Virus record (IMG/VR): IMGVR_UViG_3300042332_001447
Location: 1 to 64,000 of that record
Length of the DNA stretch: 64,000 bases
DNA from: a virus
Reading direction: 5' to 3' (one strand)
Shown here: positions 1-55,404 of the stretch, piece after piece
How the letters are laid out: each line of letters opens with the position of its first letter
How positions within the stretch are numbered: the stretch's first letter is position 1
The notes under the pieces: model-generated
What the model saw: the letters and a program-made list of their open reading frames with translations, nothing else
The model's database searches: none
What the model was told of the DNA's origin: nothing
Made by a program: the position numbers and the translations under genes

Positions 1-144
1 TTCATCGGCAGGAACTGCCGATTACAGACATGGAGCTAAAATAAGACTTTTAAAGCAATTTAAAAGCAGCGGCTATGAAGTGTCTAAAAAGAAAGAACAT
101 TTATGTTCTGAAGCCGAACGATCTTTAGTCGTTCGGTAGTTCAC
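1..144 (+). ncRNA. TnpB omega-RNA scaffold / IS200-IS605 right end (copy 1, truncated by window start)
   Basis: 141/144 identical to 15009-15152 and homologous to the tnpB 3' end (about 22136-22288). Hairpin CCGAACGA-TCTTTAG-TCGTTCGG, ends GTAGTTCAC. Frame 2 is open to TAG at 139 and resembles the TnpB C-terminal tail (SSAGTADYRHGAKIR). Confidence 0.85.
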
Positions 145-167
145 TTTAGCATAAATAATACATATCT

Positions 168-974
168 ATGGCTAGCAAAAAAATATCTGAATTTCCAGAA
201 GAACTTTTACCGGATGTTACGGATGTTATACCTATTGTAGGTGGCGGAGCTAATAAAAAAGTAACCATTAGCACTATGGCTAATCAGGTTGCTGTAACAA
301 TGCAAACCTATACCGATAATAGGTTACTGGATTATTACACAAAAGCTGAAACAGACGGTAGTTTTTTACCTTTAAATCAGCTTAACACTATTTCAGATCA
401 AGTGAGTTCTTCGGTAGTAGCTAGTATTAACACACAATTACTCACATACGCTACACAAAACTATGTAAATAGTAACTTTATTAACGTTACAGAGTATACA
501 AATATATATCAAACGGCTAGTACTACTGCTAAAGATTATACAGATAATCAGCTATTAAATTATATTACAGTAAGTTATATTAATAGCACTGTTTATCCTG
601 CGGCGAGTGCAACAGCTAGAGATTACGTTAATACTAATTTTGTCCCGCTTAGTAGTTTAAACACTATTTACCAGACAGCAAGCACTACAGCAGCAACATA
701 TGTACAGAATTACACAAACGATGTTCATACACTTGTAAGATCTAATTCAGCAATTTGGGCCGAACCAACACGAAGATTTGAATATTTAGAGAATATAAGT
801 ACTCAGGTTAACCCGGTTACTTCGTACTCTGGATCTGCATTACCTGGAACGGCTTTAAGCTCGTCAGGTTGGACTATTAGAAGGATTATATACACAAATG
901 TAGGGAGCGTGTTTAATACAGGGATAGCACAAAATGCTATCTGGGATAATAGAACATCTACAATTTACGTATAA
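168..974 (+). CDS. Putative tail fibre / virion structural protein
   Basis: N-terminal KKISEFP...IPIV..NKKVT fibre-type motif, Thr/Tyr/Asn-rich repeats, TAAATA upstream. Confidence 0.6.
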   Translation: MASKKISEFPEELLPDVTDVIPIVGGGANKKVTISTMANQVAVTMQTYTDNRLLDYYTKAETDGSFLPLNQLNTISDQVSSSVVASINTQLLTYATQNYVNSNFINVTEYTNIYQTASTTAKDYTDNQLLNYITVSYINSTVYPAASATARDYVNTNFVPLSSLNTIYQTASTTAATYVQNYTNDVHTLVRSNSAIWAEPTRRFEYLENISTQVNPVTSYSGSALPGTALSSSGWTIRRIIYTNVGSVFNTGIAQNAIWDNRTSTIYV

Positions 975-987
975 ATAATTTTATTAA

Positions 988-3981
988 ATGATTATTACAC
1001 CTCTAGATATTCCTGCATGTGCTTTATGGTTAGATGGAGCTGATCCGTCTACGATGTATCAATCTATAAGTGTAAGTAGAGAAAATCTATTTTTATACCC
1101 CGAATCGTTCTATCAGTGGAATACATTTAACGGGGGCGCTGGTAGTAATTTTTCTGTAGTCGCAGTTTTAACGTCTGATCACGTACCACCTGATAATAGT
1201 TACCCTATAACCAATAGGTTAAGCATAAGCGCAGCTAGTACGTTTGATACCACTTTATATCAAACAGTTACATTAGCTCCATGTGCTTATACTTTTTCTG
1301 TTTGGTTTAAACCTCTAACCTTATCTGCAGTACGGTTAGATATAACACGCTCAACAACTTCTGTACCAGGTGTGCAGGGAGCAAGCTGTATATTTGATCT
1401 ACAAACAGGTACCGTATCAGGTAGTGTAATCACATACGGTGGAGTCTCGTCATCTACTGCTACGATAACTCCTTCTGCAGGTTGGTATGAGTGTACATTA
1501 ACAATCTCTAATAGCACCACTCAAAACTACAATACACAAATTAAATTATTATCCACAGGTTCATTATTAGCGTATGGCGCACAATTAGAACTAAGTGCAA
1601 CGCGTACTGGCTATTTTGTCGGTGCTACAGTTGCTCCGATATTTAGTGACGCTATAACAACAAACCTCTCTGCAGTTGGTTGCTGGCTTGACAAATCTCC
1701 GAGACAACAAGTATTTAGCAACAAGTGGATCCCTGCTTGGAGACCGGTATATATACCTAGTTTGAGCGCAGTTCGCTTTACTGGTCCGTATCTTGCAACA
1801 TCATCAGTAGAGTCACTATCAGCTCAAACTGTATTTATTTTCGGGAGAATATTTGGTGGTAATAATAGTTTGCTTTTTGCACAAGGTGCTATATATCCTA
1901 CATCTAATTACGCTGCAATACAATCTGAACCTATGTATTATACTCCGTTCTATCACGGCGGAGGATGGAATAACACATGGGGCGGTCAATTTGGGTCTGC
2001 TTGGTGGAACAGTCAAGTGTATACCAATGGTAGGTATCAAATTTATAACGCAACACGTGTACGGAATGTGGTAATAAACAGAGTAGACGTGGCGAATATC
2101 GGTGCAACATATACAGGGACGTATATGCAAAACATTAAAACTAATTGCCGAGTTTTAGCGACCGGGATGCAGGAAAACCAATTTGCAGACGTGTGTGAGG
2201 TAATTGTATATAACCGAGAACTAACACCTACGGAAAAATCTGAAGTTGAGTATTATCTAACAAGAAAATGGAGCTCTTTAAATTCAACTATACCTCGTTA
2301 CGTATATGCTACTAAAAACGGTAGTTGGTCAGATTCTACAGTCTGGTCAATTAATACTGAACCTTCTCCTTGGAATGTAATTTTAAGCTCTGATAACGTC
2401 TATTCTAATACTTTTACTGTTACTGCTAATAGTTCTACAAGAGTTAGTACTGTACAAAATGCTGCATTAGTTCCAAATATTGCTGCTGGAGGCTCTTTTA
2501 TTTTATCTAATGATGTTTCTTTGAGTGCAAGCATTATAGGCAACGGTACACAATATTGCATGTTAGCTAACGTACCTAATAGCAATTGTTCATTGTATGG
2601 TAGTTTTTTGCAGTCTTCTGCTCTGAGTAGTACAAATAACAATACAATATACTTGCAAGGATTTACGTTTACTGGTGCAGGCGGACCAGCAAATGTTTTA
2701 GCGTTAAGTTCAAATTTAATTGTTGTTAATTGCGTTCTCCCTGGCAACGTAGGTGGTAGTTTTAGAATACAATTAGGGGGTAGTGCAAATACTAGCTACT
2801 ACTTATCAGCTATAAACTGTAACGTAGGAGACTACAGCGGTTTTGGAAATAGTGGGACGTTAATAAATTTTATTAATAGTTCGCCTATTGGATATTTTAG
2901 AAATTGTAATTTTGGGTCAAGTGGCGGTGGGAATGGCTGGCCAGGTAAAGGTGTTTGGTTTTCTTCAACTAACGGCACTGCGTATGTAACAAATTCTGTT
3001 CTTAGTAGTTATCCAAATACTCAGTGGTCAGGAAATAGTTTTACAATTAATAGCACAAATACTGGTTATTTTGACAATTGCGTTCTCCTTGGCGGCGGAT
3101 CAGCCAATGAAAATTGCTGTGCTATAAGCAATGGTGGATTGATATACATAACAAATTCCTCTCTAAGAGGTGGTACTGCTGGCCACGCTGTTCGTAACTC
3201 TGGGACATGCTTTATTTCAGCTAATAGCTTATTTAACGGGATAGGTGGAGCTATCATAAATAACACAGGGACATTGAGTTTATTTGCCTCAGCATCAGAT
3301 TTAATAGCTAATAATATCACCAATGCTATTATATCAACTGGCAGCTTGAGTGCTACAGTCAGAAACATCATAAACGCTCCAAATGGTTATCAAGCCATTT
3401 TTGCTTCTCGTTATCACGTCTTCCCAGGCACTTCAGCAACTTATACAAGACATGCTGTAAATGGTTATGATTCCTATGTAGATTACTGGACATCTAATGC
3501 AACATTCACTTACCCAGCCTCTTCGGATGTTGTTTTAAATACAACTTATAATAACAATACATTGACAGGATCGATGGCTCTTCCAAATACTTCAGCAGTA
3601 TTCTTAGATTGCCCTGTTGGTTCCACAACAACAACTATTTTTCAAGTTACTACTGGTAACAGATATCTAATTACTTCAAATCCTCTTAACACTAATTTTA
3701 CTCTAGTAGGTGCAAGTAGTAACACACCAGGTACAATATTTACAGCTACTAGCGCCATAACACTATCCACACCTATTACGGCATATAACAGTGATACTGG
3801 TAGAGTAGCACTTCTCGGTACATCAACACCACCCACTGTTGATAGTTTTTGGAATAGAGCGTTATCTGAGCTTACTTTACCGAGTAATACAGCTGGTGGT
3901 AAATTGAAGAATGTTGTAACAACTCAGCAACTTTCAAGCATATATACAGGGTTAATATATACAGTACCAGGGAATTTTTAA
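988..3981 (+). CDS. Virion appendage protein: LamG/ConA-like domain with inserted CBM-like module, beta-helix and shared C-terminal module
   Basis: LWLDGAD...WLDKS...EVIVYNRELT..VEYYL.RKW LamG-like motifs; GAQLE module; C-terminus paralogous to 4294 and 8901. Confidence 0.7.
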   Translation: MIITPLDIPACALWLDGADPSTMYQSISVSRENLFLYPESFYQWNTFNGGAGSNFSVVAVLTSDHVPPDNSYPITNRLSISAASTFDTTLYQTVTLAPCAYTFSVWFKPLTLSAVRLDITRSTTSVPGVQGASCIFDLQTGTVSGSVITYGGVSSSTATITPSAGWYECTLTISNSTTQNYNTQIKLLSTGSLLAYGAQLELSATRTGYFVGATVAPIFSDAITTNLSAVGCWLDKSPRQQVFSNKWIPAWRPVYIPSLSAVRFTGPYLATSSVESLSAQTVFIFGRIFGGNNSLLFAQGAIYPTSNYAAIQSEPMYYTPFYHGGGWNNTWGGQFGSAWWNSQVYTNGRYQIYNATRVRNVVINRVDVANIGATYTGTYMQNIKTNCRVLATGMQENQFADVCEVIVYNRELTPTEKSEVEYYLTRKWSSLNSTIPRYVYATKNGSWSDSTVWSINTEPSPWNVILSSDNVYSNTFTVTANSSTRVSTVQNAALVPNIAAGGSFILSNDVSLSASIIGNGTQYCMLANVPNSNCSLYGSFLQSSALSSTNNNTIYLQGFTFTGAGGPANVLALSSNLIVVNCVLPGNVGGSFRIQLGGSANTSYYLSAINCNVGDYSGFGNSGTLINFINSSPIGYFRNCNFGSSGGGNGWPGKGVWFSSTNGTAYVTNSVLSSYPNTQWSGNSFTINSTNTGYFDNCVLLGGGSANENCCAISNGGLIYITNSSLRGGTAGHAVRNSGTCFISANSLFNGIGGAIINNTGTLSLFASASDLIANNITNAIISTGSLSATVRNIINAPNGYQAIFASRYHVFPGTSATYTRHAVNGYDSYVDYWTSNATFTYPASSDVVLNTTYNNNTLTGSMALPNTSAVFLDCPVGSTTTTIFQVTTGNRYLITSNPLNTNFTLVGASSNTPGTIFTATSAITLSTPITAYNSDTGRVALLGTSTPPTVDSFWNRALSELTLPSNTAGGKLKNVVTTQQLSSIYTGLIYTVPGNF

Positions 3982-4007
3982 CTTCTAGCAATAATTATAC
4001 GTAAACT

Positions 4008-4289
4008 ATGACATCAACAACACCTATTGAATATGACGGAGAAGTATATCCATTATATAGTGCAAATCTTGCAATTACATCTTCATTTGTTAATGGTAAT
4101 ATAGAAGCCAGTGCTGCTATGCGTCTAGTGCCAACTCGAATTGATTCAGACGGTAATGCTGTAACACTTGATTCACAAGCAAAGTCAGTACTCGTTGGTA
4201 CTGTACAAGGCATATCCGGACCTGAACAAGAAGCTATGGCTGCTATCTACACTGCTGTTCAAAACTTTATTAACGCTAAAGGTCTTTAA
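4008..4289 (+). CDS. Small hypothetical protein between fibre genes (possible chaperone)
   Basis: 93 aa, tightly packed in the operon. Confidence 0.55.
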   Translation: MTSTTPIEYDGEVYPLYSANLAITSSFVNGNIEASAAMRLVPTRIDSDGNAVTLDSQAKSVLVGTVQGISGPEQEAMAAIYTAVQNFINAKGL

Positions 4290-4293
4290 TTAG

Positions 4294-7200
4294 ATGGCTG
4301 CTGTATCGTCTCCATTACTAATACCTGGGTGTCAACTTTGGCTGGATGCTGCTGACAGCTCCACGCTGTTTGATGCTACAGTTGGTGGTTCTTTAGTAAC
4401 CACCGACGGTACTGCAGTAGCTCGTTGGGAGGATAAATCTGGAAACGGTAGACATGCTACTCAATCTACTGCTAATGCAAGACCTCTTTTAAGAACAAAC
4501 GTTAAGAACGGAAGAAACGTTTTAAGATTTGATGGTTCTAACGATTTTATATCTGGCTCATCCTTCCCCTCTGTTTCTCAGTATAGTATATTTGCTGTAT
4601 ACAAGCGAACCGGATCGAATACAAACGCGTTTGGTAATTTTACCTTTGTTTTTGGTATAGGGAAAAGCGGAGATGGAACCGCTGCAGGTAGATTAACGCA
4701 CATTCATTACGCGAGCACTCCAAATGCATTTTGGTGGAGTGTTAGAGTTGGGGCTGCAGATTTAAGTATTACTCGGAATGACAATTTTAATGTTCATTCT
4801 TGCATTGCTCCTTTAGGAACAGGAACCGCAAGATATCTATTAAATGGGTCAAATGAACAAACAGTAGACGTTTCAACTCTGAATGGCTCAACAAACACTC
4901 CTCTTATATATAATTTAGGAGCAAATACTTGGAACCAGGGTCAATTCATGAATGGAGACATTTCAGAAATCCTTGTCTACAACACTGCTCTTACAACAAC
5001 TCAACGTCAGTCTGTGGAAGGGTACTTAATGGATAAATGGGGTATACCGTTAGCTATTAATTCTCCAAATGATGTAGTTGGTTGCCAGCTTTGGCTTGAT
5101 GCTAGTGACACAAGCACTCTAGCTATGGCTACTAGTGCTGTACGTACTAATTTGCTTACATATAGCGAAGATTTTGATAACACAGCTAACTGGTCTGTTA
5201 ATGGTATTACTTCAAGAACTGCAAATATAACAGCGTCTCCGTTTGGTTTAATGACTGCAGATCTCATTACTGAGAACACCTCAGCTGGGGCACATGGTAT
5301 ATTTCAAAGCAGAAATACTTACCCTGCTGGGGTTTATACGGCTAGTGTTTATTTAAAATATCACAGTAAGCAATTTGCTAGTGTTAATATTTATTCTGGT
5401 ACGACTAGTGCTACCAGAGTAGGGGTTACATTAGATCTCACAACTGGTACAGTGACTCAGGTAAATACACTCGGAACACCGGGTCTTTCGTCATTTTCTG
5501 TTGATACGACCTATGCTTCTCAAGGCTGGTATAGAGTTACAGCAACTATGCAATGTTCCGCTGTTGGTAACAATACGGGTATTGCAATTAATCTTTCTAA
5601 TACCGGCACACCAACGAGTTTTGTTGCGAGTACACTTGACCCGTCATACACAGGTACGAGTGGTGCTATGTTTATTTACGGTGCTCAGTTTGAAGCTGGT
5701 TCAGTTGCAACACCGTATTTGTATTCTGGTCCAGTTAGTAATAGTGTATTTCGACCGTTGAGCGGTAAAAATGTTACTAATCTTTTAACATTTAGTGAAG
5801 ATTGGGGTAATGGCGTGTGGGTTAAAGATAATCTTACAGTAGCTGCTAATGTGTCTGCGTCTCCAATAGGTACCCTTAGCGCTGATAAACTTTTTGAAAC
5901 TGTTACAGCTTCTCCTGTTGCTCACCGTGTTCTTAATCAATTCAACAGCGCAGCACAGCATATACCTATAACGTTTTCAGTTTACGCAAAACAAGCTGAG
6001 CGACAGTTTGTACAATTAGCTGTAGAAGCAGGTAGTAACTCAAACATATTTACTACTATTTTTGATATTACGAGCGGGGCAGGAGCAGTAGCTGCTTCTC
6101 GGGTCACAGGTACTGCTAGCCTTAGTACATCGACAATAACTCATGTAGGTAGTGGTTGGTATAGATGCTCGATTACCGGTACAAACTCCAATACATCAAC
6201 CACTGGTAATATATTTCCCTACATAAATATAACAGATAGACCAGACTTTACCGGTACTCTAGCATCCACTGTTTACCCAGCTTATATTGGTTCATCTCTA
6301 TCTGGGGTACTCGTTTGGGGTGCTCAACTCGAATACGGTTCACTTTCAACATATGTCTCAACTGGCGCTAGTACTGTTACAGCTCTTATTACTAGCGATC
6401 CGTTAATTGATAATTCTCTTATTGCACATTGGAGTAATAAGTCTGTTAATAGTAGTGTTTCTAGTATTAGCGATTTTACAGATGTCGGAGGTTCGGTTGT
6501 AACCAGACCAGTTTACAAAACAAATATACAAAATAACTACGGTGTCGTGAGATTTAACGGTATTTCACAATATTTAACAGATTATTTTAACGGTACTAAC
6601 TATACTTCTCAAACTGTGTTTGTTGTAGCTACACTCGGAACGAGTACAGGGGGTTGGGATAGATACTACACGCAAAACTCATCTGCTGTTGCTGATTATA
6701 CTATAGGTTCCGGGCATTATATACCTATAATTAGGAACACGACAACTCAAACAGTCGGTTCATACGCCAACGGTATAGCTGTTAGTACATTTACCCCTCG
6801 CGGTACCGTGGTTGCTGATATAATGACGTCTACACATACAGGGTCAGCTATACAGTGTTTTTTAAACGGTTATCCGAGTTCTTCTACATATGCTCATTCA
6901 CTTAACTATAATGTCGTAATGTCGAGACTCGGAGCTAATTTTGATAGTACTATCGGTTCTTACCTAAGAGGAGGTATAGCTGAAGTTATTGTATACAATC
7001 AATGTTTAAGTTTAACAGAACGTCAAGCTGTTGAAAATTATTTAGCGAGAAAATGGAATTTACCTCGTACCGTGCGAGCTCTCCAAGATGGTAACTGGTA
7101 TGATCCTAATACGTGGAGTATTAATGCTGAAAGCTCATCATTTAACGTACCAGCATCTACTGACGACGTATTCGCAAATAGTTTTAATATTAATATAAGC

Positions 7201-8835: not shown

Positions 8836-8900
8836 GCGTCAAGGAATTGAAATATATCTTAACACAAAATGGGGGATTTATTAATAAATAAATAAATAAT

Positions 8901-10226
8901 ATGGCGAACGTAAGAGCACTAAGAAGCGGAATTTGGCATGACACAAACCCGACAACGTCTCCATGGGGATCGGGAGGGCAAGTGTTTTTTCCAGCGTCGA
9001 ATGATGATGTCTGGCTAAACAATTTTACTGTTCAATTGACTGCTAATGCTACTGTTGCTTCCATAACCAACGCCTCTGCAACGTCCAGAGCGTGGATTTA
9101 CGGTGACACAACAACCGCTGCTTCTGGAGGAGTTTTAGTTATTGAAAATAATTCTAGTTTTTCGTCTAGTTCAATAGTTGCAGGAACGGCTACTGTTATT
9201 AATGTAGGTGGAGCGAGCGGAGCAACAATTACTGGAAGTATTTGGAATTCTTCTGCTTCATCTCAACCAGCGTTAAGCATCAATACTACTGGTACTGTTA
9301 ACATCGTTGGTTCAGTTGCTGGAGGGGCAGATTCAGGTCGAAACGGAATTAATGTTGTGAGCGGAACAGTGAATATCACAGGAAACGTTAGCGGAGGCTC
9401 TGGTGGTAATCTAAACGGCAATGGGCTGTTTAGTTCTGGAGGAACTACGACGATTACCGGTAACGTTGTTGGTGGAACTCATACTGGTGGAGGAGGATCT
9501 GATATGAGTCACGGCGTAAGAATATCTGGAGGGGTTGTAAGAATAACGGGAAACATAACTGGCCAAGGCCAGTCGAGCGCTGCTCTTGGAAGTGGTAATG
9601 TAGCTGGTTGTGGAGCATATATCACAGGTGGAGCTCTTACGACAACAGGTATCGTTAATGGTAGCAGTTTAAGTTATTTGGCTCCTGGTTTGTTTGTTGG
9701 TGGAGGAACAGTAAACGTAAACGGTAATGCAGTCAGTTCAAACACGAATTCAGCAATTTGGGGAAATACATCGTTCAATTTTTCTGGAAACATTTTAAAT
9801 AGTGCAACTGGAATTGTTGCAATCTATGCCCCAGTTTACAGAATTGATCCAGTCCCAACAAACGGTTTTATAAGACATGCAAGAAACGGTACTGGAGTTG
9901 GTTCAGATGCTTGGCTTTATCAATATACAACTGATTCGTTGAGTGCTTTTTCAATGCCTCCTGTAAGTTCTGTTAGAGCTGGCGTACAATTTGCTAACAA
10001 CACTTTAACCGGTACTTGTCTCGTACCTTCACCTAGCTCTGTATCATTTGGTACGTTAGTTGATAATACATCAGGTACCGCGGTTGTTAGTGTTAACGAT
10101 TTATTTCAAATCTTTAGTACGCCGCTCTCGTCTCTAACTACACCGAATACAATAGGTAGCAGAATAAGAACAGCTGCAACAACTGAAGCAGCTGGAAATC
10201 TTATTGCTTCGTTTACAAACGGTTAA
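8901..10226 (+). CDS. Gly-rich beta-helix virion protein, minimal paralogue of 988 and 4294
   Basis: N-terminal VRALRSGIW matches internal VRALQDGNW/VYATKNGSW; shared C-terminal SSVRAG...VPSP.SVSF module. Confidence 0.65.
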   Translation: MANVRALRSGIWHDTNPTTSPWGSGGQVFFPASNDDVWLNNFTVQLTANATVASITNASATSRAWIYGDTTTAASGGVLVIENNSSFSSSSIVAGTATVINVGGASGATITGSIWNSSASSQPALSINTTGTVNIVGSVAGGADSGRNGINVVSGTVNITGNVSGGSGGNLNGNGLFSSGGTTTITGNVVGGTHTGGGGSDMSHGVRISGGVVRITGNITGQGQSSAALGSGNVAGCGAYITGGALTTTGIVNGSSLSYLAPGLFVGGGTVNVNGNAVSSNTNSAIWGNTSFNFSGNILNSATGIVAIYAPVYRIDPVPTNGFIRHARNGTGVGSDAWLYQYTTDSLSAFSMPPVSSVRAGVQFANNTLTGTCLVPSPSSVSFGTLVDNTSGTAVVSVNDLFQIFSTPLSSLTTPNTIGSRIRTAATTEAAGNLIASFTNG

Positions 10227-10492: not shown

Positions 10493-10521
10493 ATTTATTA
10501 TAAATTATAGTAAATATTAAA

Positions 10522-11684: not shown

Positions 11685-11730
11685 TTAATTAATTATTCGA
11701 ATTTTATGTCTGTACGCTTAAATAACATAA

Positions 11731-12466: not shown

Positions 12467-12477
12467 ATTTAAAGTAT

Positions 12478-12705: not shown

Positions 12706-12711
12706 TAATTG

Positions 12712-12740
12712 AATATACAGCTTTTAGTAGGAACTAGCAA
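12712..12740 (-). promoter_or_regulatory. Sigma70-like promoter TTGCTA-N17-TATATT
   Basis: Canonical 17-nt spacing; -10 ends 6 nt before ATG at 12705. Confidence 0.55.
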
Positions 12741-12751
12741 GAAAAAAAAAA

Positions 12752-13015
12752 TTATTCTTTAGCATTTGCTACACAAACTTCAAACACATCTGGTGGTAAG
12801 CATTCCACCCATTCAAAAAGATTGGTTACTATTCCGCTGTTAAAATCATCTACGGTAACGTAAAACCGTGTACAGTCTGGTAATCTCATAAACTCAAGAG
12901 TTTCATCGTTTTCTTTTTTTATAAAGAGTACGAAATCTCCTCGTCTATACTTAGTTATTGCATACACCCCTCTCTCTTTAGGGGTATGAAACTTTTTCTT
13001 AAAAATACTAAACAC
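12752..13015 (-). CDS. Hypothetical protein
   Basis: 87-aa ORF. Confidence 0.5.
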   Translation of the reverse strand: MFSIFKKKFHTPKERGVYAITKYRRGDFVLFIKKENDETLEFMRLPDCTRFYVTVDDFNSGIVTNLFEWVECLPPDVFEVCVANAKE

Positions 13016-13038
13016 TAAATTATATTATGCTAGAAATT

Positions 13039-14550
13039 CTAAAAATTCCACAACCTTACTGCTCTTGTCGTACCATTTACGTTTAGAAGGAGAAAGTCTC
13101 CAGTAGCTGTAACTGGAGTTGTGAAAGTACTAAGTTCACTTGTAAGTGTGAGATTTGCAGGTTTTATGTCGAGGGTTTGTAAGCTAAACGAGTTTGCAAA
13201 TATAGTACCTGTTGCAGAAATATCCCCTGTAACTGTTAGAGGTCTATTAGGAGCAGGGGTGTTTATACCAACATTACCATCTATAAATACATTTTTCGTT
13301 GCAGACAAGGTGCTATTAACAACGAAAGTGTTACTCGGTAAGGTAGGCCAAACTCCTGTAGGTATATCTACGTTAATACTCACATAATTATCATCTGTAT
13401 TAACATATAGAGCTTTCTGCCCTATATTGAGATGTCTAGTGGCGGATATCTCTCCAGACACTGTTAATTGCTTGTTTGGGGTTGTGCCTATGCCAACGTT
13501 ATCATTTACTGTTAGGTTTTGAGAAACTAGTGCACTACCTATGACATGTAAATCAAACAACGGGGTTAAAGTATTAATACCTACTCTACCATTTGAACTC
13601 TTAACATGTAAAACATTACCTGCTACAGTTAGGTCTTTTTTGATTGACGCGTCACTATTTGCTAAAAGAGAACCACTTAACGATACATTTGTAAGTACAT
13701 CAAGTGAATTATCAATTTTTGTGTATGCGTTTGTATAAAAATTTGTTAAAGAAGGGTTATAAAAGAAACCAGGTCCACTAAAAACCCCATTTGACACGTT
13801 AATTTTACCGGTACCAGATATGTCTCCAACAACAGTTAGATCAGCATTCGGTGTTATGGTGTTAATACCGACTTTATTAGACGTAGAATTAACAAAAAAC
13901 GTATTATTATCCACTCTAAGAGATTTACCTACTACTAATTCCCCATTAAGTAGTGTGCTCCCGTTTACTTGCATGTCACCACCAAATACGACAGCAGTCT
14001 GTATAGTGAAAGAGTTGGTGATGAGAATATTGTCACACGTAATATTTTTTACGAGTGTGCTTCCGTCCTCAATATATAAAGCCCATTTAGGGCTATTGAG
14101 TATTAAAGCGGTATCTGTATTATGGGAAATCTTTGCAGAGTGAGTTTCTTTTGGTGAGTTTGCAGATAACACTCCCTGTAGAACAAAAGGTCCTTGAAAC
14201 GGAGAATCTGGGGACGCAATCGGATCGTACGATGAGTCTGGGTATCTTGGATCAGGGCTCGGATCAGTGTGATGGTTGTGTCTATGGAATTTACTCCTGT
14301 ATACCCAATTTTTTTATATAAGCTAGATTATATTGGGAGTGGACTATATCATCAACCTTACGGTTGCGGGGCGCTATTGAAGTCTTATTGTTTGGCTACT
14401 CAACTTCTAGTCTCTGCACCTTCTTAGTACTCTGTGCCTTCCTAAGCTTGGCTCAGGATTAAGTTTCTCAACTCTTCCCCTGAATTCACCCCGTTTGCAT
14501 ATACTATTACTAGTATAAGCCACTATAAATTAATGGAATCTTGTTGACAT
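13039..14550 (-). CDS. Intron-split fibre-like beta-repeat protein: join(14550..14533, 14295..13039), 424 aa
   Basis: Exon 1 ATG TCA ACA AGA TTC CAT joins in frame to AGT AAA TTC CAT AGA CAC AAC CAT CAC (MSTRFH|SKFHRHNHHTDPSPDPRYPDSSYDPIASP) and runs into the tracked ORF 13039-14172; VGIN/GDISATG repeats. Confidence 0.85.
14296..14532 (-). ncRNA. Group I self-splicing intron, ORF-less, 237 nt, IC3/trnL-like core
   Basis: P1 exon CCAU pairs with GUGG (U-G at the 5' splice site); P2 TATACTA/TAGTATA; P3 CGGGGTG/CGCCCCG; P AATTCAGGGGAA; Q AATCCTGAGCCAAG; R GGTGCAGAGACTAG; S ATGATATAGTCC; terminal G at 14296; P10 AATTTAT with exon 2 GTAAATT. Confidence 0.92.
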
Positions 14551-14795
14551 AAATTATAAAAAATACTTCTCCTTTGTTATATTTAATCATATTTTATAAA
14601 AAAAACGATTTTGTCTCCTCGGTTTCATGTATAATTAATATTAAGCTTATGAATAAAAAAAGAGAAAAAAAATGTTTTCATGTACCTGTTAACTGTAAGC
14701 AGTGCGGAGATATAACCCATCATAACAAGTATTACTACAAAAAAATGAATGGCGTAGTATTTTGTTCTCAGCGTTGTTGCGTTTACATTTCAGGA

Positions 14796-14840
14796 CTGAG
14801 TTTCATCTGAGTGACTAAAGATCACTCAGATGAAACTCAG
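14796..14840. repeat. Perfect 19-bp inverted repeat with 7-nt loop
   Basis: CTGAGTTTCATCTGAGTGA-CTAAAGA-TCACTCAGATGAAACTCAG. Confidence 0.95.
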
Positions 14841-15008
14841 CCTTGCAAAAGATAAATAAAAAAGATAAATAAAAATAACCCCTTCAATGGAAACAGATCT
14901 AAAACAAATAATAAAAAGACCTTTCAGTGGCGTAGCAAGGAAGACTCCGTCTTCCTTTTGGATGCTGATACCAAGTAAATCAAAGGCACAAAGAAACTAC
15001 TTTGGAGT

Positions 15009-15152
15009 TTCATCGGCAGGAACTGCCGATTACAGGCATGGAGCTAAAATAAGACTATTAAAGCAATTTAAAAGCAGCGGCTATGAAGTGTCTAAAAAGA
15101 AAGAACATTTATGTTCTGAAGCCAAACGATCTTTAGTCGTTCGGTAGTTCAC
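15009..15152 (+). ncRNA. TnpB omega-RNA scaffold (copy 2); predicted guide begins at 15153 (ATTATGTATATCTTAACGGA)
   Basis: Covarying hairpins relative to the tnpB-linked copy. Confidence 0.8.
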
Positions 15153-15336
15153 ATTATGTATATCTTAACGGAAGAAACATACTACAGATGAAAGACGTCT
15201 ATCAGTTAGATACAGAAAAGGATCTCTATTTAAAAAGAAAGTATGATACATATAAACATATCCAACGGTTTTATGAAGATAAAGATAATACAAAAAAATT
15301 TCCTGTAATAGAATAAATAATGGTAGTACACCTCTT

Positions 15337-15972
15337 ATGGACTTTACCCCGCACATTTTACCGATATTAGCAGCGTTCTTTACAGGTATTGCAGGCCCTG
15401 TATTAGTCGCCTTTGTAAAACATAGACTTAGCATTAAAAAAATAAACGAGATACAGAAAAGACGTACAGATTTTAATATAACTATTGACACACAACAAAA
15501 AATTAATAGATCTATCAACCAGTTTCAAACAAAGCACGATTTAGATAGAATTTGGATTGCACAATTTCATAACGGTGGTAATTTTTACCCAGGTAACAAG
15601 AGTATGAAAAAACTTTCTGTTACGTTTGAATCTACTAGACCTGGTATATCGACTGATATAATGAAAATGCAAAACTTACCGGTATCGTTCTTTAGTACTG
15701 TTTTGCAGGAAATGAACGTAAAACAGACAGGGTATATTATTGAAACTGCTGAAACAGAGGATAACGCATTTAAGGGATTCTGGGAAAGTCGCGGTATAAC
15801 TAGAACATATTTATTCCCTGTGATATGTATAGAAGGTGGGTTTATTGCTATTTTCGGTGTAGATTTTATTCACAGAGATGAAAAATTACCGGATAATGTT
15901 TTTAGGGAATTAGAAATAGAGTCGAAGCATTTATCGGGGTATATTGCTACTGTTTCTGTAGAAAAACATTAA
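15337..15972 (+). CDS. N-terminal TM protein with GAF-like domain (holin/antiholin-like)
   Basis: Single TM, DRIWIAQFHNGG motif, first gene of the lysis cassette; architecture recalls T4 holin T. Confidence 0.5.
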   Translation: MDFTPHILPILAAFFTGIAGPVLVAFVKHRLSIKKINEIQKRRTDFNITIDTQQKINRSINQFQTKHDLDRIWIAQFHNGGNFYPGNKSMKKLSVTFESTRPGISTDIMKMQNLPVSFFSTVLQEMNVKQTGYIIETAETEDNAFKGFWESRGITRTYLFPVICIEGGFIAIFGVDFIHRDEKLPDNVFRELEIESKHLSGYIATVSVEKH

Positions 15973-16000
15973 AACGCGAAAAAATAACATAAATAATTTT

Positions 16001-16597
16001 ATGTTATTAAGATATATTTACACAAGTTGTTTATCTATGCTTTTCTTAACGTCGTGTACTGTGTACACAGAGAAGCAATCTGAAGCGTTATCTCGCTCTG
16101 TATATGCTACAAAAGATTCAATTGATTACGCCCGAATAGATTTAGCGGATTATTATATTAGTGAATCTATTAGACTTGTAAGACCACCGAAAGAAAGAGT
16201 GTCTATACAATCAGTGTATAAAAAAGACGAGGTATCTACTAAAAAAAAAGTAGATACTGTAGTTAATAAACAGAGAGTGCTTTTAATACCAGAAAAATAT
16301 AAAAGTGATACGGTTGTTACGATTAACTCTCAAGAATACGAACAATTAATAAAAAATAAAGAAATATCTGTTCAATTAGAAAAAGATTTTGCAAATATAG
16401 CAAAAACAAAACAGTTAGTGGATACAGAGTTAACTCGTCAGATAGAGTATAGTGAAAGAATGATTAGAGATTTAAACACTATGCAAAAAAAGCTAGTGGA
16501 AAAAGACTTAGCTATATTACAAAGAAATATAATAATTGTTGCTTTATTAGCATCAATAGGGGTAGGAGTTTATTTGAGAATGAAAGGAGTATTATAA
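16001..16597 (+). CDS. Putative unimolecular spanin (lipoprotein with C-terminal TM)
   Basis: Lipobox LTSC at residues 16-19, coiled coil, C-terminal hydrophobic IIIVALLASIGVGVYL. Confidence 0.55.
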   Translation: MLLRYIYTSCLSMLFLTSCTVYTEKQSEALSRSVYATKDSIDYARIDLADYYISESIRLVRPPKERVSIQSVYKKDEVSTKKKVDTVVNKQRVLLIPEKYKSDTVVTINSQEYEQLIKNKEISVQLEKDFANIAKTKQLVDTELTRQIEYSERMIRDLNTMQKKLVEKDLAILQRNIIIVALLASIGVGVYLRMKGVL

Positions 16598-17028
16598 TGA
16601 TACCTGCTCTTAAAGATATTATACTAACAGCAACTGCTTTTTTGAGTAGTAACCGAGTTCCTCCAAATACACTACCGGAAGATTGCGAGAGGTTAAAGTC
16701 AATAAACCACATGGAATCTAAAAAATTTTTTATTGTTTTAACATCTGTGTTTATTCTTGCTTTTTTTTATTTTGCTAGTGTTGGAGTGTTATTCTTGTTA
16801 CCACATAATGCACCAGAATTTGTTAGCGGTTTTGTGACACTGTTCTCAAAAACAATTGAAATTTTAGCTGTTGTTATAGCGTCGTATGTTGGAGCACAAG
16901 CTGTTGTTGATTTAAAATACGCAAGTAACTCTAATGCTTCTTTAGCTGGTACAACCCACACTGAAGACATACAAAATGTAACTGTTATACAAACAAACAT
17001 AAAAGAAGATGATTATGAACTCAATTAA
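16597..17028 (+). CDS. Putative holin (2 TM)
   Basis: Two hydrophobic segments, directly upstream of and overlapping the endolysin. Confidence 0.5.
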   Translation: MIPALKDIILTATAFLSSNRVPPNTLPEDCERLKSINHMESKKFFIVLTSVFILAFFYFASVGVLFLLPHNAPEFVSGFVTLFSKTIEILAVVIASYVGAQAVVDLKYASNSNASLAGTTHTEDIQNVTVIQTNIKEDDYELN

Positions 17029-17632
17029 ACCGTCTAAAAAAACGTTAGATCTCTTACTTCAATACGAAGTCGGTGGTGGTAAATTGTACTACGAAAAACA
17101 TCTTTCAAAATTTACCTGGCCTGGCGGAGCATCAGGGCCAACAATCTCGATCGGGGTAGACTGTGCATATTATTCAGAAGCTGAATTAGCAGAAATATTT
17201 TCTTTTTTACCTGATGATCAAATAAAACAAGTTCAGGGTGCTTCAGGTAAAACCGGAGAAAAAGGTAAACAATACACTGTTATACTGAGAGCTGCAGGAA
17301 TTACTGTGAGTTGGGATAAAGCACTTGAAATTTTTGAAAAGTTAACTTGGCCAAAATTTACCAAGCTAGCTGAGAAGACATTTCCGGGATTAGCTGATTT
17401 ACACCCAGATGCTTACGGTGCAATCGTGTCTTTAGTCTTTAACAGAGGAACGAGTCTTTCTGGAGAGAAAAGAAAAGAAATGGCTAATATTAAAACACTA
17501 ATTCCTAAAAAAGATTATAAGAAAATCGCTAAAGAGTTTCGTAATATGAAGCGAATTTGGATAGGAAAAGGTCTTGATGGATTACTAGAAAGAAGAGAAG
17601 CTGAGGCTAAATTGATTGAAAGTGTGGTCTAG
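17009..17632 (+). CDS. Endolysin, lysozyme-like (GH24/pesticin-like muramidase)
   Basis: LLQYEVGG, WPGGASGPTISIGVD, AIVSLVFNRG, GLLERREAEAKL. Confidence 0.8.
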   Translation: MIMNSIKPSKKTLDLLLQYEVGGGKLYYEKHLSKFTWPGGASGPTISIGVDCAYYSEAELAEIFSFLPDDQIKQVQGASGKTGEKGKQYTVILRAAGITVSWDKALEIFEKLTWPKFTKLAEKTFPGLADLHPDAYGAIVSLVFNRGTSLSGEKRKEMANIKTLIPKKDYKKIAKEFRNMKRIWIGKGLDGLLERREAEAKLIESVV

Positions 17633-17817
17633 TGTATAGTTTCCCGGTAACAATACAGAGTCTCTCTTGAGTTTAGTTTAAAATAACGATCTTACCATAG
17701 TTTTAAAATACAACCATTCTCTGAGACATAGTAAATAAACAAATGTAGGGCTCTTCTTAACGTAAAAATACATTAACCAAAATAAGAATAGTGCATTACG
17801 CATAAATATAATTATAT

Positions 17818-18345
17818 ATGGGTATTAAAAAATTCGACATTCTTGTAAACAGTATCTTACAAGAAGGAGAAATCTTAACAAATGCTGAAGATGTTAACAA
17901 TCTAACATCTTACGATACAATAGTGAGTATTGTTAATAGAATGATCGAAGATCCAAGAGAGCTTTTACCGCCTGTTGATCTTAAAAAATTTATTATAAAA
18001 GATCCTAAGGAAAAAGACGGCTATAAGTTTACTTGGCGGTACGGTAATAGTATCTTTGTCGAAATTAAAGTAACACCGAGTAATATCTATATATACGATA
18101 TAAAGAGTGATAAAGTATTATTTAGTACACCTACTACTGAGAGCCCTGTACATAGTGTCGAAAACACAATTTTCACAGAGATTGAAAAGTTGATCGCAGC
18201 TGATAAACAAAAAGATGAATTAGGAGTCTCTACACCTCTTGAGCTCGGAGATATAAATAAATCCGCTTTACCAGGAGCTGAGAGAGAAGCTAATAATAAA
18301 GCTCCTACATCGAAAACGAGTGAGTATTTAAAAGGTCTTAGATAA
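17818..18345 (+). CDS. Hypothetical protein
   Basis: 175 aa, CATAAATA upstream. Confidence 0.6.
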   Translation: MGIKKFDILVNSILQEGEILTNAEDVNNLTSYDTIVSIVNRMIEDPRELLPPVDLKKFIIKDPKEKDGYKFTWRYGNSIFVEIKVTPSNIYIYDIKSDKVLFSTPTTESPVHSVENTIFTEIEKLIAADKQKDELGVSTPLELGDINKSALPGAEREANNKAPTSKTSEYLKGLR

Positions 18346-18505
18346 CAAAATCTTCGGGATCTATTTCATCGATCTTTTGTTTAAGATATTCTAAAGCGTA
18401 TTCTATATCAGTAATTTTTGTAAAATTACCTGCTATTGCTATTTCTATAATATCTTCAACCGCTGTATCTATTACGGATTCAATTTCGCTATGTTTTTGT
18501 GACAT
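18338..18505 (-). CDS. Small acidic hypothetical protein (likely start MSQKHS at 18505)
   Basis: The shorter start avoids overlap with phoH. Confidence 0.45.
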   Translation of the reverse strand: MSQKHSEIESVIDTAVEDIIEIAIAGNFTKITDIEYALEYLKQKIDEIDPEDFVI

Positions 18506-18587
18506 AAGTGTATAAAACGTATTTATACATCTCGGTAATATTTTTTGCGAACAGGAACCAGCAGTGGTCGCGATTAAATAATATAGA

Positions 18588-20510
18588 GTGAAAACTAAAC
18601 GATCACCAAAGCAAACTGCGTCAAAGCAGAACGCATCAGACGTATCATCTGATATAAGCAAAAAAGATACTTCTCCAAGAGTGCATCAAAGAGAAAAAAT
18701 AAATTTTAATCTCAATATAAAAGGACTTGATTGGACGGAGAAACAAAAAGCATTTATAGAACTTGCTACTCACAAAGACACTAGAGTTGTATTTTTAAGT
18801 GGTCCTGCCGGTACAAGCAAGGCACAGCCTCTTGATGCTAAATTATTAACACCTAATGGATGGCGTTTAATGGGAGACATACAACCAGGGGACAAGGTAT
18901 ATGGTAGAGACGGCACACCTGTTAAAGTAATAAGTATACATCCTCAAGGTATACAGGATATTTTTAAAGTAACGTTTTCTGATGGCACATCGACAGAATG
19001 TACTGATGATCACTTATGGCTTACTAAGACATACTATGATCGTACTTTTGAGAAAACTAGAGAGACTGTCAGGTTATCGCGTCAAAAAAGAGGTTTACGT
19101 GAATTAAAGCATAGTCAAGCAAGAATTGACTCCTCTAAGAACGGTACTGTAAAGACTCTAAAAGAAATTAGAGAAACTTTGTATGTCGGTGGTAGCGAGA
19201 ATATTAATCACACGATACCTATTGTTGATGTTTTACAATTTCCTGCTCGGGAACATATAATACATCCGTATATTATGGGTGTATTATTGGGTGATGGATG
19301 TTTACGTACTCGTATTGGTATAACGAGTGCTGACTCCGAGCTTGTTGAACGGGTAAGAGAGTTTTTACCGAGTGATATGCAACTCAAGTATCTAGACAGA
19401 CCGTACGAATACAAGATCATGGGTAAAGAGAGAAGCACTAACTATTTCTTAAAAGAATTAGCTCGAATGGAATTAAGAGGTAAGTATTCATACAATAAAT
19501 GTATACCTGATGAGTATCTTTTTGATTCACAAGAAAATAGACTGTGGTTACTAAAAGGTTTAATGGATACAGATGGTTTCGCGGTTTCAAAACAAAGCTA
19601 TGTAGGTTTTTGCAGCACGTCTGTTGATTTGATGGATGGTGTTCGTTTTTTGGTAGAATCTCTCGGTGGAGTATGTTCAGCGGGCCATGCCTCTGATGGT
19701 AACGATTATATGTATAATGGCGAATTACGTAAAGGTAGACCGTCATGGTCGTTTTTTGTAAACTTACCTGTAAATCCGTTTAGTTTGAGTCGTAAGCAGG
19801 TATTAGTGAAGCAGCGAACTAAATATTTTCCACAGCGATACATAACAAACGTGGAATATGTAGGGCAAAAAGAAGCTCAGTGTATTTTAGTGGATAGTGC
19901 AGAACACTTATATCTCACAAATAATTGTATTGTTACACATAATACCGCGCTGGCAGTATTCTGCGCTCTTCAATTAATAAACACAAAGAGAGCTAGTGAG
20001 TTAGTTTACGTTAGATCATTAGTCGAGAGTGCATCCCAGAGCTTAGGTTCTCTACCTGGAGAGATGGGTGAAAAATTTAAACCGTTTGCTATGCCTCTTA
20101 TAGATAAATTAGAAGAGTTTCTATGCACAGGGGATATAAAGAAATTATTCGCTGATGAAAGAGTTAAACCTACACCTGTTAACTATCTTAGAGGTGCTTC
20201 ATACAACGCAAATGTAGTTATTGTAGATGAAGCGCAAAATCTCGATTTTAATAAAGAGCTCGTAACTGTTATAACCCGTATAGGTAAATTTAGTAAATTT
20301 TTTATACTCGGGGATCCTATGCAAACAGATCTTAAGCATAAAGAGCAGTCCGGATTTAAGCCTATGTTTGATCTCTTTAATGACGAGCAATCTCAAAAAG
20401 AAGGAATATATTGTGTAGAATTCACTAAGGATGATATCATGCGTTCTGAACTTCTCAAGTTTATCGTAGAAAAAATTGAAAATTATCAAGCTATAAAGAA
20501 ACAAATGTAG
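18588..20510 (+). CDS. phoH: PhoH-like ATPase containing an intein (about 266 aa mature)
   Basis: GPAGTSK|T P-loop, LGSLPG, YLRGAS, IVDEAQN, GDPMQTD, DIMRS. Confidence 0.92.
   Translation: MKTKRSPKQTASKQNASDVSSDISKKDTSPRVHQREKINFNLNIKGLDWTEKQKAFIELATHKDTRVVFLSGPAGTSKAQPLDAKLLTPNGWRLMGDIQPGDKVYGRDGTPVKVISIHPQGIQDIFKVTFSDGTSTECTDDHLWLTKTYYDRTFEKTRETVRLSRQKRGLRELKHSQARIDSSKNGTVKTLKEIRETLYVGGSENINHTIPIVDVLQFPAREHIIHPYIMGVLLGDGCLRTRIGITSADSELVERVREFLPSDMQLKYLDRPYEYKIMGKERSTNYFLKELARMELRGKYSYNKCIPDEYLFDSQENRLWLLKGLMDTDGFAVSKQSYVGFCSTSVDLMDGVRFLVESLGGVCSAGHASDGNDYMYNGELRKGRPSWSFFVNLPVNPFSLSRKQVLVKQRTKYFPQRYITNVEYVGQKEAQCILVDSAEHLYLTNNCIVTHNTALAVFCALQLINTKRASELVYVRSLVESASQSLGSLPGEMGEKFKPFAMPLIDKLEEFLCTGDIKKLFADERVKPTPVNYLRGASYNANVVIVDEAQNLDFNKELVTVITRIGKFSKFFILGDPMQTDLKHKEQSGFKPMFDLFNDEQSQKEGIYCVEFTKDDIMRSELLKFIVEKIENYQAIKKQM
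18822..19943 (+). mobile_element. Class 3 intein (374 aa) with LAGLIDADG homing endonuclease
   Basis: Starts AQPLDA; block B DDHLW; block F AQCILV; ends VTHN|T; MGVLLGDG and LKGLMDTDG motifs. Confidence 0.9.
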
Positions 20511-20512
20511 AT

Positions 20513-20905
20513 ATGAAAGCTCTTATAGACGAAATATACACCGAACAAGAATGTTCACATATTAAAACGTTCTTTAGTGAAGATTCATCTTTAAGAGATA
20601 TTATAAAAAAAGCTATAGGGGATAAAATAATACTGAGTAGCGAAAAAATACTACTCAGTAGCCCTTTGGATATAGTCTACCTAATTTGCTTGACAAGTAA
20701 ATTTGCAACTTCTGATGATGAGTGTCATCGAGTTGCTATTACCGTGTTTCAGTTTATTGAAAAGATCGATGATTCACTACCCTATTTGAGTGAGGATGGT
20801 TGTACATTACTTTTTGCAAGTAAGGTTCTTATGGCGTTATCATTCAGAGTAAAAGCTATTGAACATCGTTGGAAGTATCGTGGTGCACCTTCACCTAGTT
20901 TTTAC
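20513..20905 (+). pseudogene. Hypothetical gene interrupted by the tnpB element; probable C-terminus at 22290-22361
   Basis: ORF reaches ...GAPSPSFY at TTAC; an NNGQADIAKHHEQWEGFLGELLV* frame follows the right end. Confidence 0.55.
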
Positions 20906-21030
20906 ATGTTAGGACTGAGTGAAAGCTGAGTGATCTTTAGTCACTCAGATGAAACTCAGCCTTTAAAATATTTGTAAAGAAATTAATATTTTCATTAGAA
21001 AAATACTTCCGCTTTGATTAAATATAATAA

Positions 21031-22272
21031 GTGGAAGCACCAAAGACATATTTTAAAGCGTTCAAGTTTAGACTTGATCCCAAAGAGGATCAACTCACCT
21101 TGCTTTCAAAGCACTTTGGTTGCACAAGGTTTCTTTATAACTATTTCTTAGGTGAAAAGATTCGTCACTACAAAGATAACGGAACTACTTTGAACTTTAA
21201 CAACACATGTATATCTCTAACTTCTTTAAAAAAACAAGAAGAATACGAATGGCTTTCAGAAGTTAACGCTCAGTGTCTCCAAGGCTCTTTGAAGAATTTA
21301 GAGAACGCATATCAAAGATTCTTTAAAAAACAATCAAAGTTTCCTCGTTTTAAGTCAAAGAAAGTTAATAGTGACTCGTTTTGTTGCCCTCAGCATGTAA
21401 CCATAGAAGGAAACAAAATCTTCGTTCCTAAGTTTAAAGAAGGCATTCCTTTCACAAAGCACAGAGAGATCAAAGGAGAAGTAAGAAGTGCAACGTTTTC
21501 TAAAGTCCCTTCTGGAAAGATGTACGTTAGTATTCTTTGCGAGTTGCCTTTAGAGACTCCTCTAAAAAAGACAGGAAAGAAGATTGGAGTAGATTTAGGC
21601 TTAAAAGACTTCTTGATAACCTCTGATGGCAAAAGATTTGCTAATCCAAGATTTTTAAAACAATTTTTAAAAGAACTTAAAGACCAACAAAAACATTTTA
21701 ATAGAAAACAAAAAGATTCGAAAAGAAAAGACAAACAAAGACTGAAAGTAGCTTGTTTGCATGAGAAGATAACCAATTCTCGTACTAACATGCAACACCA
21801 GATCAGCTCTTTTCTTGTTAAAAACTACGATCTAATAGCATTGGAGAGCCTTAATGTAAAAGGAATGATGGCTAACCATAGGTTAGCACAGTCTATTAGT
21901 GATGTAGCATGGAGTGGCTTTGTCTCCAAGTTAGAATACAAAGCAAAATGGTATGGAAAGGAAGTCATTCGTATTGAAACTTTCTTTCCATCCAGTAAAA
22001 CATGCAGTTGTTGCAATCAGGTCAAATCCAAACTAACTCTCAAAGAAAGAGATTGGACGTGTGTTTCTTGTAACACAAAGCATGACAGAGATATTAATGC
22101 CGCAACAAATATTTTGCAAAGAGGCATTACGATCTTATCGTCTGGAACAGACGATTACAGACATGGAGCTAAAATAAGACCCGTCAAGGAGAAATCTTTG
22201 AAAGGCACAAGCGTTGAGATGTCTAAAAAGAAGAATGTGCGCAAGTACATTCTGAAGCCGAACGATCTTTAG
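21031..22272 (+). CDS. tnpB: RNA-guided endonuclease TnpB
   Basis: N-terminal AFKFRL..HFGCTRFLYN, RuvC-I GVDLG, RuvC-II ALESL, Zn finger CSCC/CVSC, RuvC-III DRDINAA; catalytic D-E-D intact. Confidence 0.95.
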   Translation: MEAPKTYFKAFKFRLDPKEDQLTLLSKHFGCTRFLYNYFLGEKIRHYKDNGTTLNFNNTCISLTSLKKQEEYEWLSEVNAQCLQGSLKNLENAYQRFFKKQSKFPRFKSKKVNSDSFCCPQHVTIEGNKIFVPKFKEGIPFTKHREIKGEVRSATFSKVPSGKMYVSILCELPLETPLKKTGKKIGVDLGLKDFLITSDGKRFANPRFLKQFLKELKDQQKHFNRKQKDSKRKDKQRLKVACLHEKITNSRTNMQHQISSFLVKNYDLIALESLNVKGMMANHRLAQSISDVAWSGFVSKLEYKAKWYGKEVIRIETFFPSSKTCSCCNQVKSKLTLKERDWTCVSCNTKHDRDINAATNILQRGITILSSGTDDYRHGAKIRPVKEKSLKGTSVEMSKKKNVRKYILKPNDL

Positions 22273-22288
22273 TCGTTCGGTAGTTCAC
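22136..22288 (+). ncRNA. TnpB omega-RNA scaffold (copy 3); predicted guide begins at 22289 (AAATAACGGTCAAGCAGATA)
   Basis: Overlaps the tnpB 3' end and right end; hairpins with GAAA and GCAA loops. 5' boundary approximate. Confidence 0.8.
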
Positions 22289-22397
22289 AAATAACGGTCA
22301 AGCAGATATCGCTAAACATCACGAGCAATGGGAAGGATTTCTTGGAGAGTTGTTAGTTTAAACTTGATTTTTAGTTAGGAAAATAATAAATTTTTAA

Positions 22398-55353: not shown

Positions 55354-55404
55354 ACTACCGATTAACTAAAGATCTCCTAATCTCTGAGAGTAGGCTTTCT
55401 TATT

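Follow-up and report, generated by a model that had tools for sequence, protein, structure and literature searches.

A tnpB-only IS200/IS605 element and related gene-less guide-RNA cassettes in a T4-like freshwater phage

We examined a window of 64,000 bp (positions 1 to 64,000) of the IMG/VR record IMGVR_UViG_3300042332_001447, which carries an IS200/IS605-family element with a tnpB gene, together with shorter, gene-less relatives (hereafter mini-elements) that retain a guide-RNA scaffold. The record is a contig of 95,773 bp with a CheckV completeness of 45%, and the window starts at its first base, inside a mini-element. In total, the window holds one full element (copy 3), one complete mini-element (copy 2), the right half of a second mini-element (copy 1) and one degenerate remnant. 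The features are as follows (ORF, open reading frame; TAM, target-adjacent motif; PATE, palindrome-associated transposable element).

1..144, + strand: right half of a gene-less mini-element (copy 1), comprising scaffold and right-end hairpin; nhmmer E 7.7e-49, model positions 26-168; the contig start cuts off the left end
145..164, + strand: flank-derived guide of copy 1, intergenic, just upstream of ORF 168-974; contains a CATAAATA box
14783..14786, + strand: TTAC target motif (TAM) directly left of mini-element 2
14787..15152, + strand: complete gene-less mini-element 2 (copy 2), PATE-like, 366 bp; nhmmer E 1.6e-53
14792-14842, + strand: left-end hairpin of mini-element 2
14851-14858 and 14864-14871, + strand: two GATAAATA boxes in mini-element 2
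14986-15152, + strand: guide-RNA scaffold of mini-element 2
15153..15172, + strand: copy 2 guide, taken from the flank; it is the 3′ end displaced from the small Cys-rich ORF 14649-14810
20513..20929, + strand: phage gene cut short by the full element; intact homologues have 163 aa
20902..20905, + strand: TTAC target motif left of the full element
20906..22288, + strand: full IS200/IS605-family element (copy 3) of the tnpB-only type, 1383 bp; left-end hairpin 20911-20961
21031..22272, + strand: tnpB (TnpB1), 413 aa, GTG start; assigned by Pfam domains, RuvC residues and structure homology
22120..22288, + strand: guide-RNA (omega-RNA) scaffold overlapping the tnpB 3′ end; nhmmer E 3.9e-40
22289..22308, + strand: guide of the full element, taken from the flank; a related population has these letters after TTAC
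22290..22361, + strand: 3′ end of the truncated gene, left orphaned (23 codons and stop); the protein is 100% identical to the C-terminus of the closest intact homologue, P0001
55350..55452, - strand: degenerate scaffold and right-end remnant between convergent genes; E 6.9e-4, model positions 72-168

Element ends, copy number and mini-element anatomy

The three scaffolds with a common end and different guides, claimed in the initial annotation, lie where it had placed them: the scaffolds at 144, 15152 and 22288 all terminate in GGTAGTTCAC, and are followed by TTTAGCATAAATAATACATA in copy 1, ATTATGTATATCTTAACGGA in copy 2 and AAATAACGGTCAAGCAGATA in copy 3. A scan for the 25-nt right-end core gave three exact matches on the + strand and one match with three mismatches on the - strand (55350-55374), where shuffled sequences are expected to give none. 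At the left end of the full element, TTAC precedes a subterminal hairpin (AGGACTGAG...CTCAGCC, loop TCTTTAG), and the same left-end module, also preceded by TTAC, lies 366 bp to the left of the right end of copy 2. The complete copy 2 with its left end and the fourth, degenerate copy on the - strand are additions to the initial annotation. The loop TCTTTAG is common to the left- and right-end hairpins, and both ends carry subterminal imperfect palindromes without terminal inverted repeats. Counted over the mini-type left ends and the full element in the window, the motif on the left is TTAC in six cases, TTAT in three and CTAC in one; at these ten left ends flanking direct repeats are absent, as in insertion 3′ of a motif without target duplication. 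In ISDra2, a known element of this family, the target motif is TTGAT.

An exact scan for the right-end core retrieved three sibling contigs from the same metagenome (9.1, 57.7 and 33.5 kb), with CheckV completeness values of 5, 27 and 13%, so that the four contigs sum to about 90% completeness and together hold about 196 kb. Several results indicate that the four contigs complement one another as parts of a single phage genome of about 200 kb, split at repeats. Within and between the contigs, the elements are the only similarity, save one 419-bp repeat and one intragenic tandem repeat; seven of the eight contig ends fall within an element; and the 127 bases that end the record also open a sibling contig, within a scaffold variant seen nowhere else. 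The 419-bp repeat (98% identity, L012:694-1112 and L013:3266-3684, inside a sibling contig) is unrelated to the TnpB elements, and the tandem repeats (31066-31452, about 108-nt offset, 74-82% identity) are diverged copies within the 1211-aa ORF 28212-31847 on the - strand.

The phage is a T4-like, virulent freshwater (lake) phage. GenBank phages yielded no megablast match to 14000-23000, and the right-end motif matched, among bacterial and archaeal genomes, only distant metagenome-assembled genomes (Methanohalobium, Saccharibacteria), which are uninformative as to the host of the phage. An nhmmer profile search of the four contigs, by which copies were counted genome-wide, returned 15 scaffold matches, 14 of them distinct, as well as two remnants. 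Three of the distinct scaffolds are attached to an intact-looking tnpB and 11 are gene-less.

In the mini-element, the left end is followed by an A-rich stretch that carries two GATAAATA boxes, then by a variable hairpin, a relic of the tnpB 3′ end and finally the scaffold. An 86-aa protein was considered as the product of the mini-elements and rejected; because this frame is broken in three of eight copies, the mini-elements are non-coding. With both ends seen in copy 2 (the left end of copy 1 lies beyond the contig start), no intact gene and multiple copies (11 distinct ones), they are gene-less derivatives of the type of PATEs and miniature inverted-repeat transposable elements. Their boxes could also be read as a sign that the mini-elements are regulatory cassettes of the phage, acting as mobile promoters or terminators, with an incidental likeness to guide RNAs. 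One or two GATAAATA boxes occur in each mini-element, and most copies share the direction of the neighbouring genes; over the four contigs, NATAAATA is found within 60 nt upstream of ORF starts in 45/119 cases compared to 6/119 for its reverse complement. However, outside the elements GATAAATA is weakly tied to ORF starts (3/13), the conserved and covarying part is the TnpB scaffold with the transposon ends and not the box region, and several copies lie within genes or at gene 3′ ends; a regulatory role is therefore very improbable. The motif NATAAATA itself lies mostly 6-14 nt before an ATG, and resembles a T4 late promoter placed unusually near start codons.

Several copies have unusual features. 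The left-end hairpin of mini-element 2 (14794-14842) is a perfect palindrome, with arms that are reverse complements of each other and an inverted loop (CTAAAGA vs TCTTTAG), and would probably be unfit for TnpA. A mini-element in a sibling contig (L012:2599-2905, - strand) is without a left end, and has kept the boxes and an intact scaffold. Another copy, L015:4965-5338 (- strand), is a mosaic that combines a mini-type left end and leader with a central hairpin like that of copy 3 and a right-end hairpin like that of the second full element, which points to recombination among element lineages. A 51-bp solo sequence (L013:2350-2400, sibling contig 22350-22400), which joins the 5′ portion of one left end to a right-end hairpin by way of the loop common to both, has the same left-flank letters as the third full element and looks like the footprint of a left/right-end recombination that deleted the interior. 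Lastly, a contig of run X1 joins 15152 to 20902, i.e., a right end directly to TTAC and a left end, at single-copy depth, which suggests two tandem elements somewhere in the unassembled part of the genome.

TnpB proteins and the guide-RNA scaffold

The ORF at 21031-22272 matches the Pfam families OrfB_IS605 (2.4e-24), Cas12f1-like_TNB (4.1e-23) and HTH_OrfB_IS605 (3.8e-13), and is the sole OrfB_IS605 match in the record, in which no Y1 transposase was found either; the claim of a single tnpB and no tnpA, made for the window, holds for all 95,773 bp. Sequence and alignment place the RuvC residues at D188, E272 and D354 and also show a CxxC...CxxC zinc ribbon, and among solved structures the Deinococcus ISDra2 TnpB (8h1j/8exa) is closely homologous to TnpB1 (E 7e-79). 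The stop codon of the gene is located in the loop of the right-end hairpin. Two additional tnpB genes (420 and 419 aa) were found in one sibling contig; TnpB1 is 61% identical to TnpB2, which is 88% identical to TnpB3. By its TnpB domains, D-E-D triad, ends and target motif, the element is a tnpB-only (IS1341-like) member of the IS200/IS605 family.

Mobilisation by a Y1 (HUH) TnpA is the one family feature that was not found here. Searches of the four contigs gave no match to Y1 TnpA (PF01797) and no serine recombinase, and five other phage contigs bearing the family likewise had no PF01797 match. The right-end module is also present in distant archaeal and bacterial metagenome-assembled genomes, one of which does encode a Y1 TnpA. 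As tnpB-only elements need no TnpA of their own and rely on one supplied in trans, insertion at new sites probably needed a Y1 TnpA from elsewhere, either the host or the unassembled remainder of the genome. Two other classes of TnpB-related systems were excluded. The element does not encode a nuclease-dead regulator of the TldR type (PMC10705468), since the catalytic residues and both transposon ends are present, and it is not an IStron (PMC4227781), as the only Rfam group I intron (14323-14542) lies outside the element on the opposite strand. This intron (- strand, 80.8 bits, E 5.9e-19) is found just upstream of the tail-fibre-like ORF 13039-14172, 245 bp from mini-element 2, and is missing from a run X4 contig and from the relative L019.

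We then analysed the fold of the scaffold in an alignment of 15 scaffolds, with covariation assessed over 50 pairs. The scaffolds have a common fold of nine helices, in which 96% of the cells are paired. Double-sided pair changes number 17, compared to 6.5 +/- 1.7 in shuffles and 2-5 in slid-partner controls, and G-U pairs are frequent on the scaffold sense strand. The structured scaffold overlaps the tnpB 3′ end, terminates at the right end and is followed by the guide, as in RNAs of OMEGA systems (short for obligate mobile element-guided activity). Because compensatory changes preserve the fold, the use of these scaffolds in trans by a TnpB is plausible.

The fold also bears on the possibility that the mini-elements are inert debris, i.e., decaying deletion derivatives whose RNA is not made or used and which have had too little time to be lost. 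That decay occurs is clear from two remnants and from the mini-element that is without its left end, and a scan around copy 2 for terminators and sigma-70-type promoters found nothing above shuffles. Against this, the mini-elements are up to 13% apart and yet have kept the fold through compensated stems, with three compensated versions of helix 1 among the mini-elements alone; in two copies, one internal hairpin has been exchanged for a different hairpin; and the single-stranded blocks TGGAGC, TAAGAC, AAAAAGA, CTGAAGCC and GGTAGTTCAC are invariant in 15/15 copies. We therefore judge inert debris to be improbable.

Copies 1 and 2 agree at 97.5% across the core scaffold, and either is 74-75% alike to copy 3, in agreement with the initial description of two near-identical copies and a diverged third. 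The mini-elements are 87-100% alike to one another (the mosaic copy excepted), whereas they share 69-77% with the scaffold of copy 3, 58-62% with that of TnpB2 and 63-72% with that of TnpB3; they form a scaffold lineage of their own that is closest to copy 3. From this divergence, the initial annotation had suggested that a second cognate TnpB may lie upstream of the window. Two more tnpB genes do exist in the sibling contig, but neither carries a mini-type scaffold, and the record starts inside copy 1.

Guides, insertion sites and element-free alleles

Searched with up to three mismatches in the phage contigs and the fetched relatives, each guide has an exact match only at its own flank. Matches elsewhere with one or two mismatches were few, and none is preceded by TTAC or TTAT. 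A role of the guides in targeting other loci of the phage or its relatives was accordingly rejected, for want of a second TTAC- or TTAT-flanked match; the guides are a by-product of the landing site, consisting of the DNA that flanks the right end.

Copy 3 interrupts the gene at 20513-20929, which retains 131 native residues followed by seven residues and a stop read from the left end of the element, at the cost of 32 conserved C-terminal residues. The intact homologues have 163 aa, four of them at 90-97% identity and from other samples (P0001-P0003 were compared as proteins only), and the 138-aa form is seen in this contig only. A contig of run X4, from a related population in another study, skips 20907-22286 and has in its place 23 letters encoding the missing RQLSKQIFT. 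This empty allele reads ...TTTAC followed by AAATAACGG..., i.e., the target motif and the copy 3 guide, and therefore contains the predicted TnpB target. An empty site with TTAC and guide, which the initial annotation had expected in relatives, was thus found for copy 3. In addition, three syntenic, more distant phages are all without an element at this site. A locus search with the truncated gene turned up no relative among viral or metagenome contigs, and exact scans of viral and metagenome contigs with the 23 letters gave no match. In two close homologues (P0034 and P0035), Ala or Ser replaces the Thr whose codon completes TTAC; these would be alleles without the target motif, at a position that is generally variable.

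The allele pair is not a simple one: in the empty allele, two TTTAC pentamers bracket 26 nt that are missing from the occupied one. Copy 3 is thus not a simple insertion, since a small deletion goes with it and the reading frame of the target gene is shifted. The loss could be due either to a small deletion after insertion or to slippage between the two TTTAC repeats while the element was copied in.

At the other two sites, the comparison was limited. Mini-element 2 truncates the small Cys-rich ORF 14649-14810, for which the protein collection gave no homologue. In run X4, 109 other letters stand in place of 14287-15331 (intron, Cys-rich ORF and mini-element), and this region is a variable island between conserved genes. 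For copy 1, divergence precludes a site comparison, as ORF 168-974 and its homologue in a relative share 33-43% identity. Upstream of the gene interrupted by copy 3, the PhoH gene (18588-20510, + strand) carries an intein (Hint and LAGLIDADG matches, residues ~96-360); in the relatives L019-L021, PhoH residues ~5-79 and ~440-638 are contiguous, i.e., there is no intein.

Guide use in trans and comparison with known systems

Selfish homing or retention is the most likely account when this anatomy is combined with what is known of IS200/IS605 elements and TnpB (PMC8612924, PMC10055086). We consider it probable that the copies are one tnpB-only (IS1341-like) IS200/IS605 lineage with PATE-like mini-elements, which is selfish and uses its guides in trans for homing or retention. 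From the anatomy, copy number, target motif, RNA fold, catalytic residues and empty allele of copy 3, all directly observed, we infer transcription, loading in trans, cleavage and homing. Each copy would have landed 3′ of a TTAC-like motif with its right-end RNA scaffold retained, and each scaffold would yield an RNA whose last 16-20 nt are neighbouring phage DNA. The three intact-looking TnpBs would bind their own RNAs and, in trans, those of the mini-elements, and the complex would cut element-free copies of the locus (TTAC and flank) that arise by excision or are brought in by a co-infecting relative. Repair of the break by phage recombination from an element-bearing genome would then keep the element or copy it in.

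Several observations weigh against this account. Cross-loading of the mini-elements would not be assured, since their scaffold is just 58-77% identical to the three TnpB-linked scaffolds. For TnpB1, the only in-frame start is a GTG, and an obvious ribosome-binding site is lacking. Support for the X4 joint comes from a single contig at depth 6, aligned at 85% likeness, and the occupied allele has the 26-nt loss described above. The relatives examined are without the whole 14287-15331 region, including the group I intron, and hence offer no copy 2 target, while the left flank of copy 1 lies beyond the contig start.

A bolder version, which we put forward tentatively and regard as less likely to be true than not, is that the family persists in T4-like phages chiefly as an RNA-guided homing network without a transposase, in which a few TnpBs serve many gene-less cassettes in trans as a distributed gene drive. 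If true, co-infection would let each cassette drive its locus into relatives without the element. Such a network would explain the survival of scaffolds in copies whose left end is ruined (mini-element 2) or lost (L012), as well as the absence of TnpA from the phage DNA (about 430 kb) in which the family occurs.

It has also to be considered whether the phage has adopted the elements as a weapon, with a guide repertoire that cuts co-infecting relatives at many loci, gives the carrier a competitive edge by marker exclusion or interference competition, and is kept by phage-level selection. The distributed multi-guide repertoire proposed in the initial annotation stands in so far as scaffolds of the TnpB type carry different guides and the mini-elements are nuclease-less; the guides, however, come automatically from the insertion sites. 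One genome does hold 14 guides and three nucleases, an element-free allele with TTAC and guide exists in relatives, and scaffolds persist although left ends seem unfit (palindrome 14794-14842) or are absent (the sibling-contig copy). There are also precedents, in the T-even homing endonucleases (PMC13565253) and in a mobile intron that is reported to aid phage competition (10.1101/2023.09.30.560319). On the other hand, the insertions harm phage genes (with 32 conserved C-terminal residues missing from one and a small ORF cut short), each guide is simply the flank beside the landing site, the copy 2 target region is absent from relatives, and the pattern is the same as that of selfish homing, with nothing to separate the two. 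Because insertions truncate phage genes, a phage-serving guide repertoire is not supported, and we hold it to be unlikely.

Selfish homing or retention has a background in related systems. Bacteria and archaea are known to contain IS200/IS605 derivatives that have no gene but carry omega-RNAs (PMC3119063, PMC10055086), and the omega-RNAs encoded by PATEs need TnpBs of other elements acting in trans (PMC10055086). T4-like phages with several tnpB-only IS200/IS605 elements have been on record since 2010 (PMC2853527), a single cyanophage tnpB has been studied (10.64898/2026.02.14.705889), and a 2026 review treats homing into co-infecting phages as a theoretical mode (PMC13565253). In plasmid populations, a TnpB-driven, TnpA-independent spread of IS605 is reported (PMC11870625). 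As both the element type and the idea of use in trans are already published, the value of this phage is that of a well-characterised example and not of a new principle. It is a natural test case, with three nucleases, eleven nuclease-less cassettes and at least one locus with coexisting occupied and empty alleles, and the elements illustrate how such repeats fragment phage assemblies.

The closest known systems are PATEs (Haloquadratum, PMC3119063; Geobacillus stearothermophilus, Meers et al., PMC10055086), which like the mini-elements have both ends, no protein gene and a retained omega-RNA, and which occur in many copies beside tnpB-only elements, with a TnpB encoded elsewhere proposed to act on the RNA. 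The hosts of PATEs are cells, whereas here the host is a virulent T4-like phage, with no TnpA in about 196 kb and a mini-element scaffold lineage that is separate (58-77%). The elements ISCaje1-4 of the Campylobacter phages CP220 and CPt10 (PMC2853527) are similar in that several mostly tnpB-only IS200/IS605 elements reside in T4-like genomes; they amount to five elements in two genomes, one with TnpA, and gene-less guide-RNA mini-elements were not described there, while here three full elements and 11 mini-elements occur in one genome. With ISDra2 TnpB and its omega-RNA (PMC8612924), the full element, whose nuclease activity is predicted, has in common the catalytic residues, a scaffold overlapping the gene 3′ end and a right-flank guide; it differs in its target motif, which here appears to be TTAC or TTAT.

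The T-even homing endonucleases (seg and mob, free-standing or intron-borne; PMC13565253) offer a further parallel, as the element-free allele is cut and converted by recombination; in this phage, recognition would instead be by RNA, and for the mini-elements the nuclease and the recognition module are at separate loci. For the TnpB-driven plasmid spread of IS605 (PMC11870625), the expected outcome is likewise a cut and converted element-free allele. In summary, what is distinctive of this phage compared to these systems is the density of copies (14 scaffolds in about 196 kb), the separate mini-element lineage and the natural pair of occupied and empty alleles.

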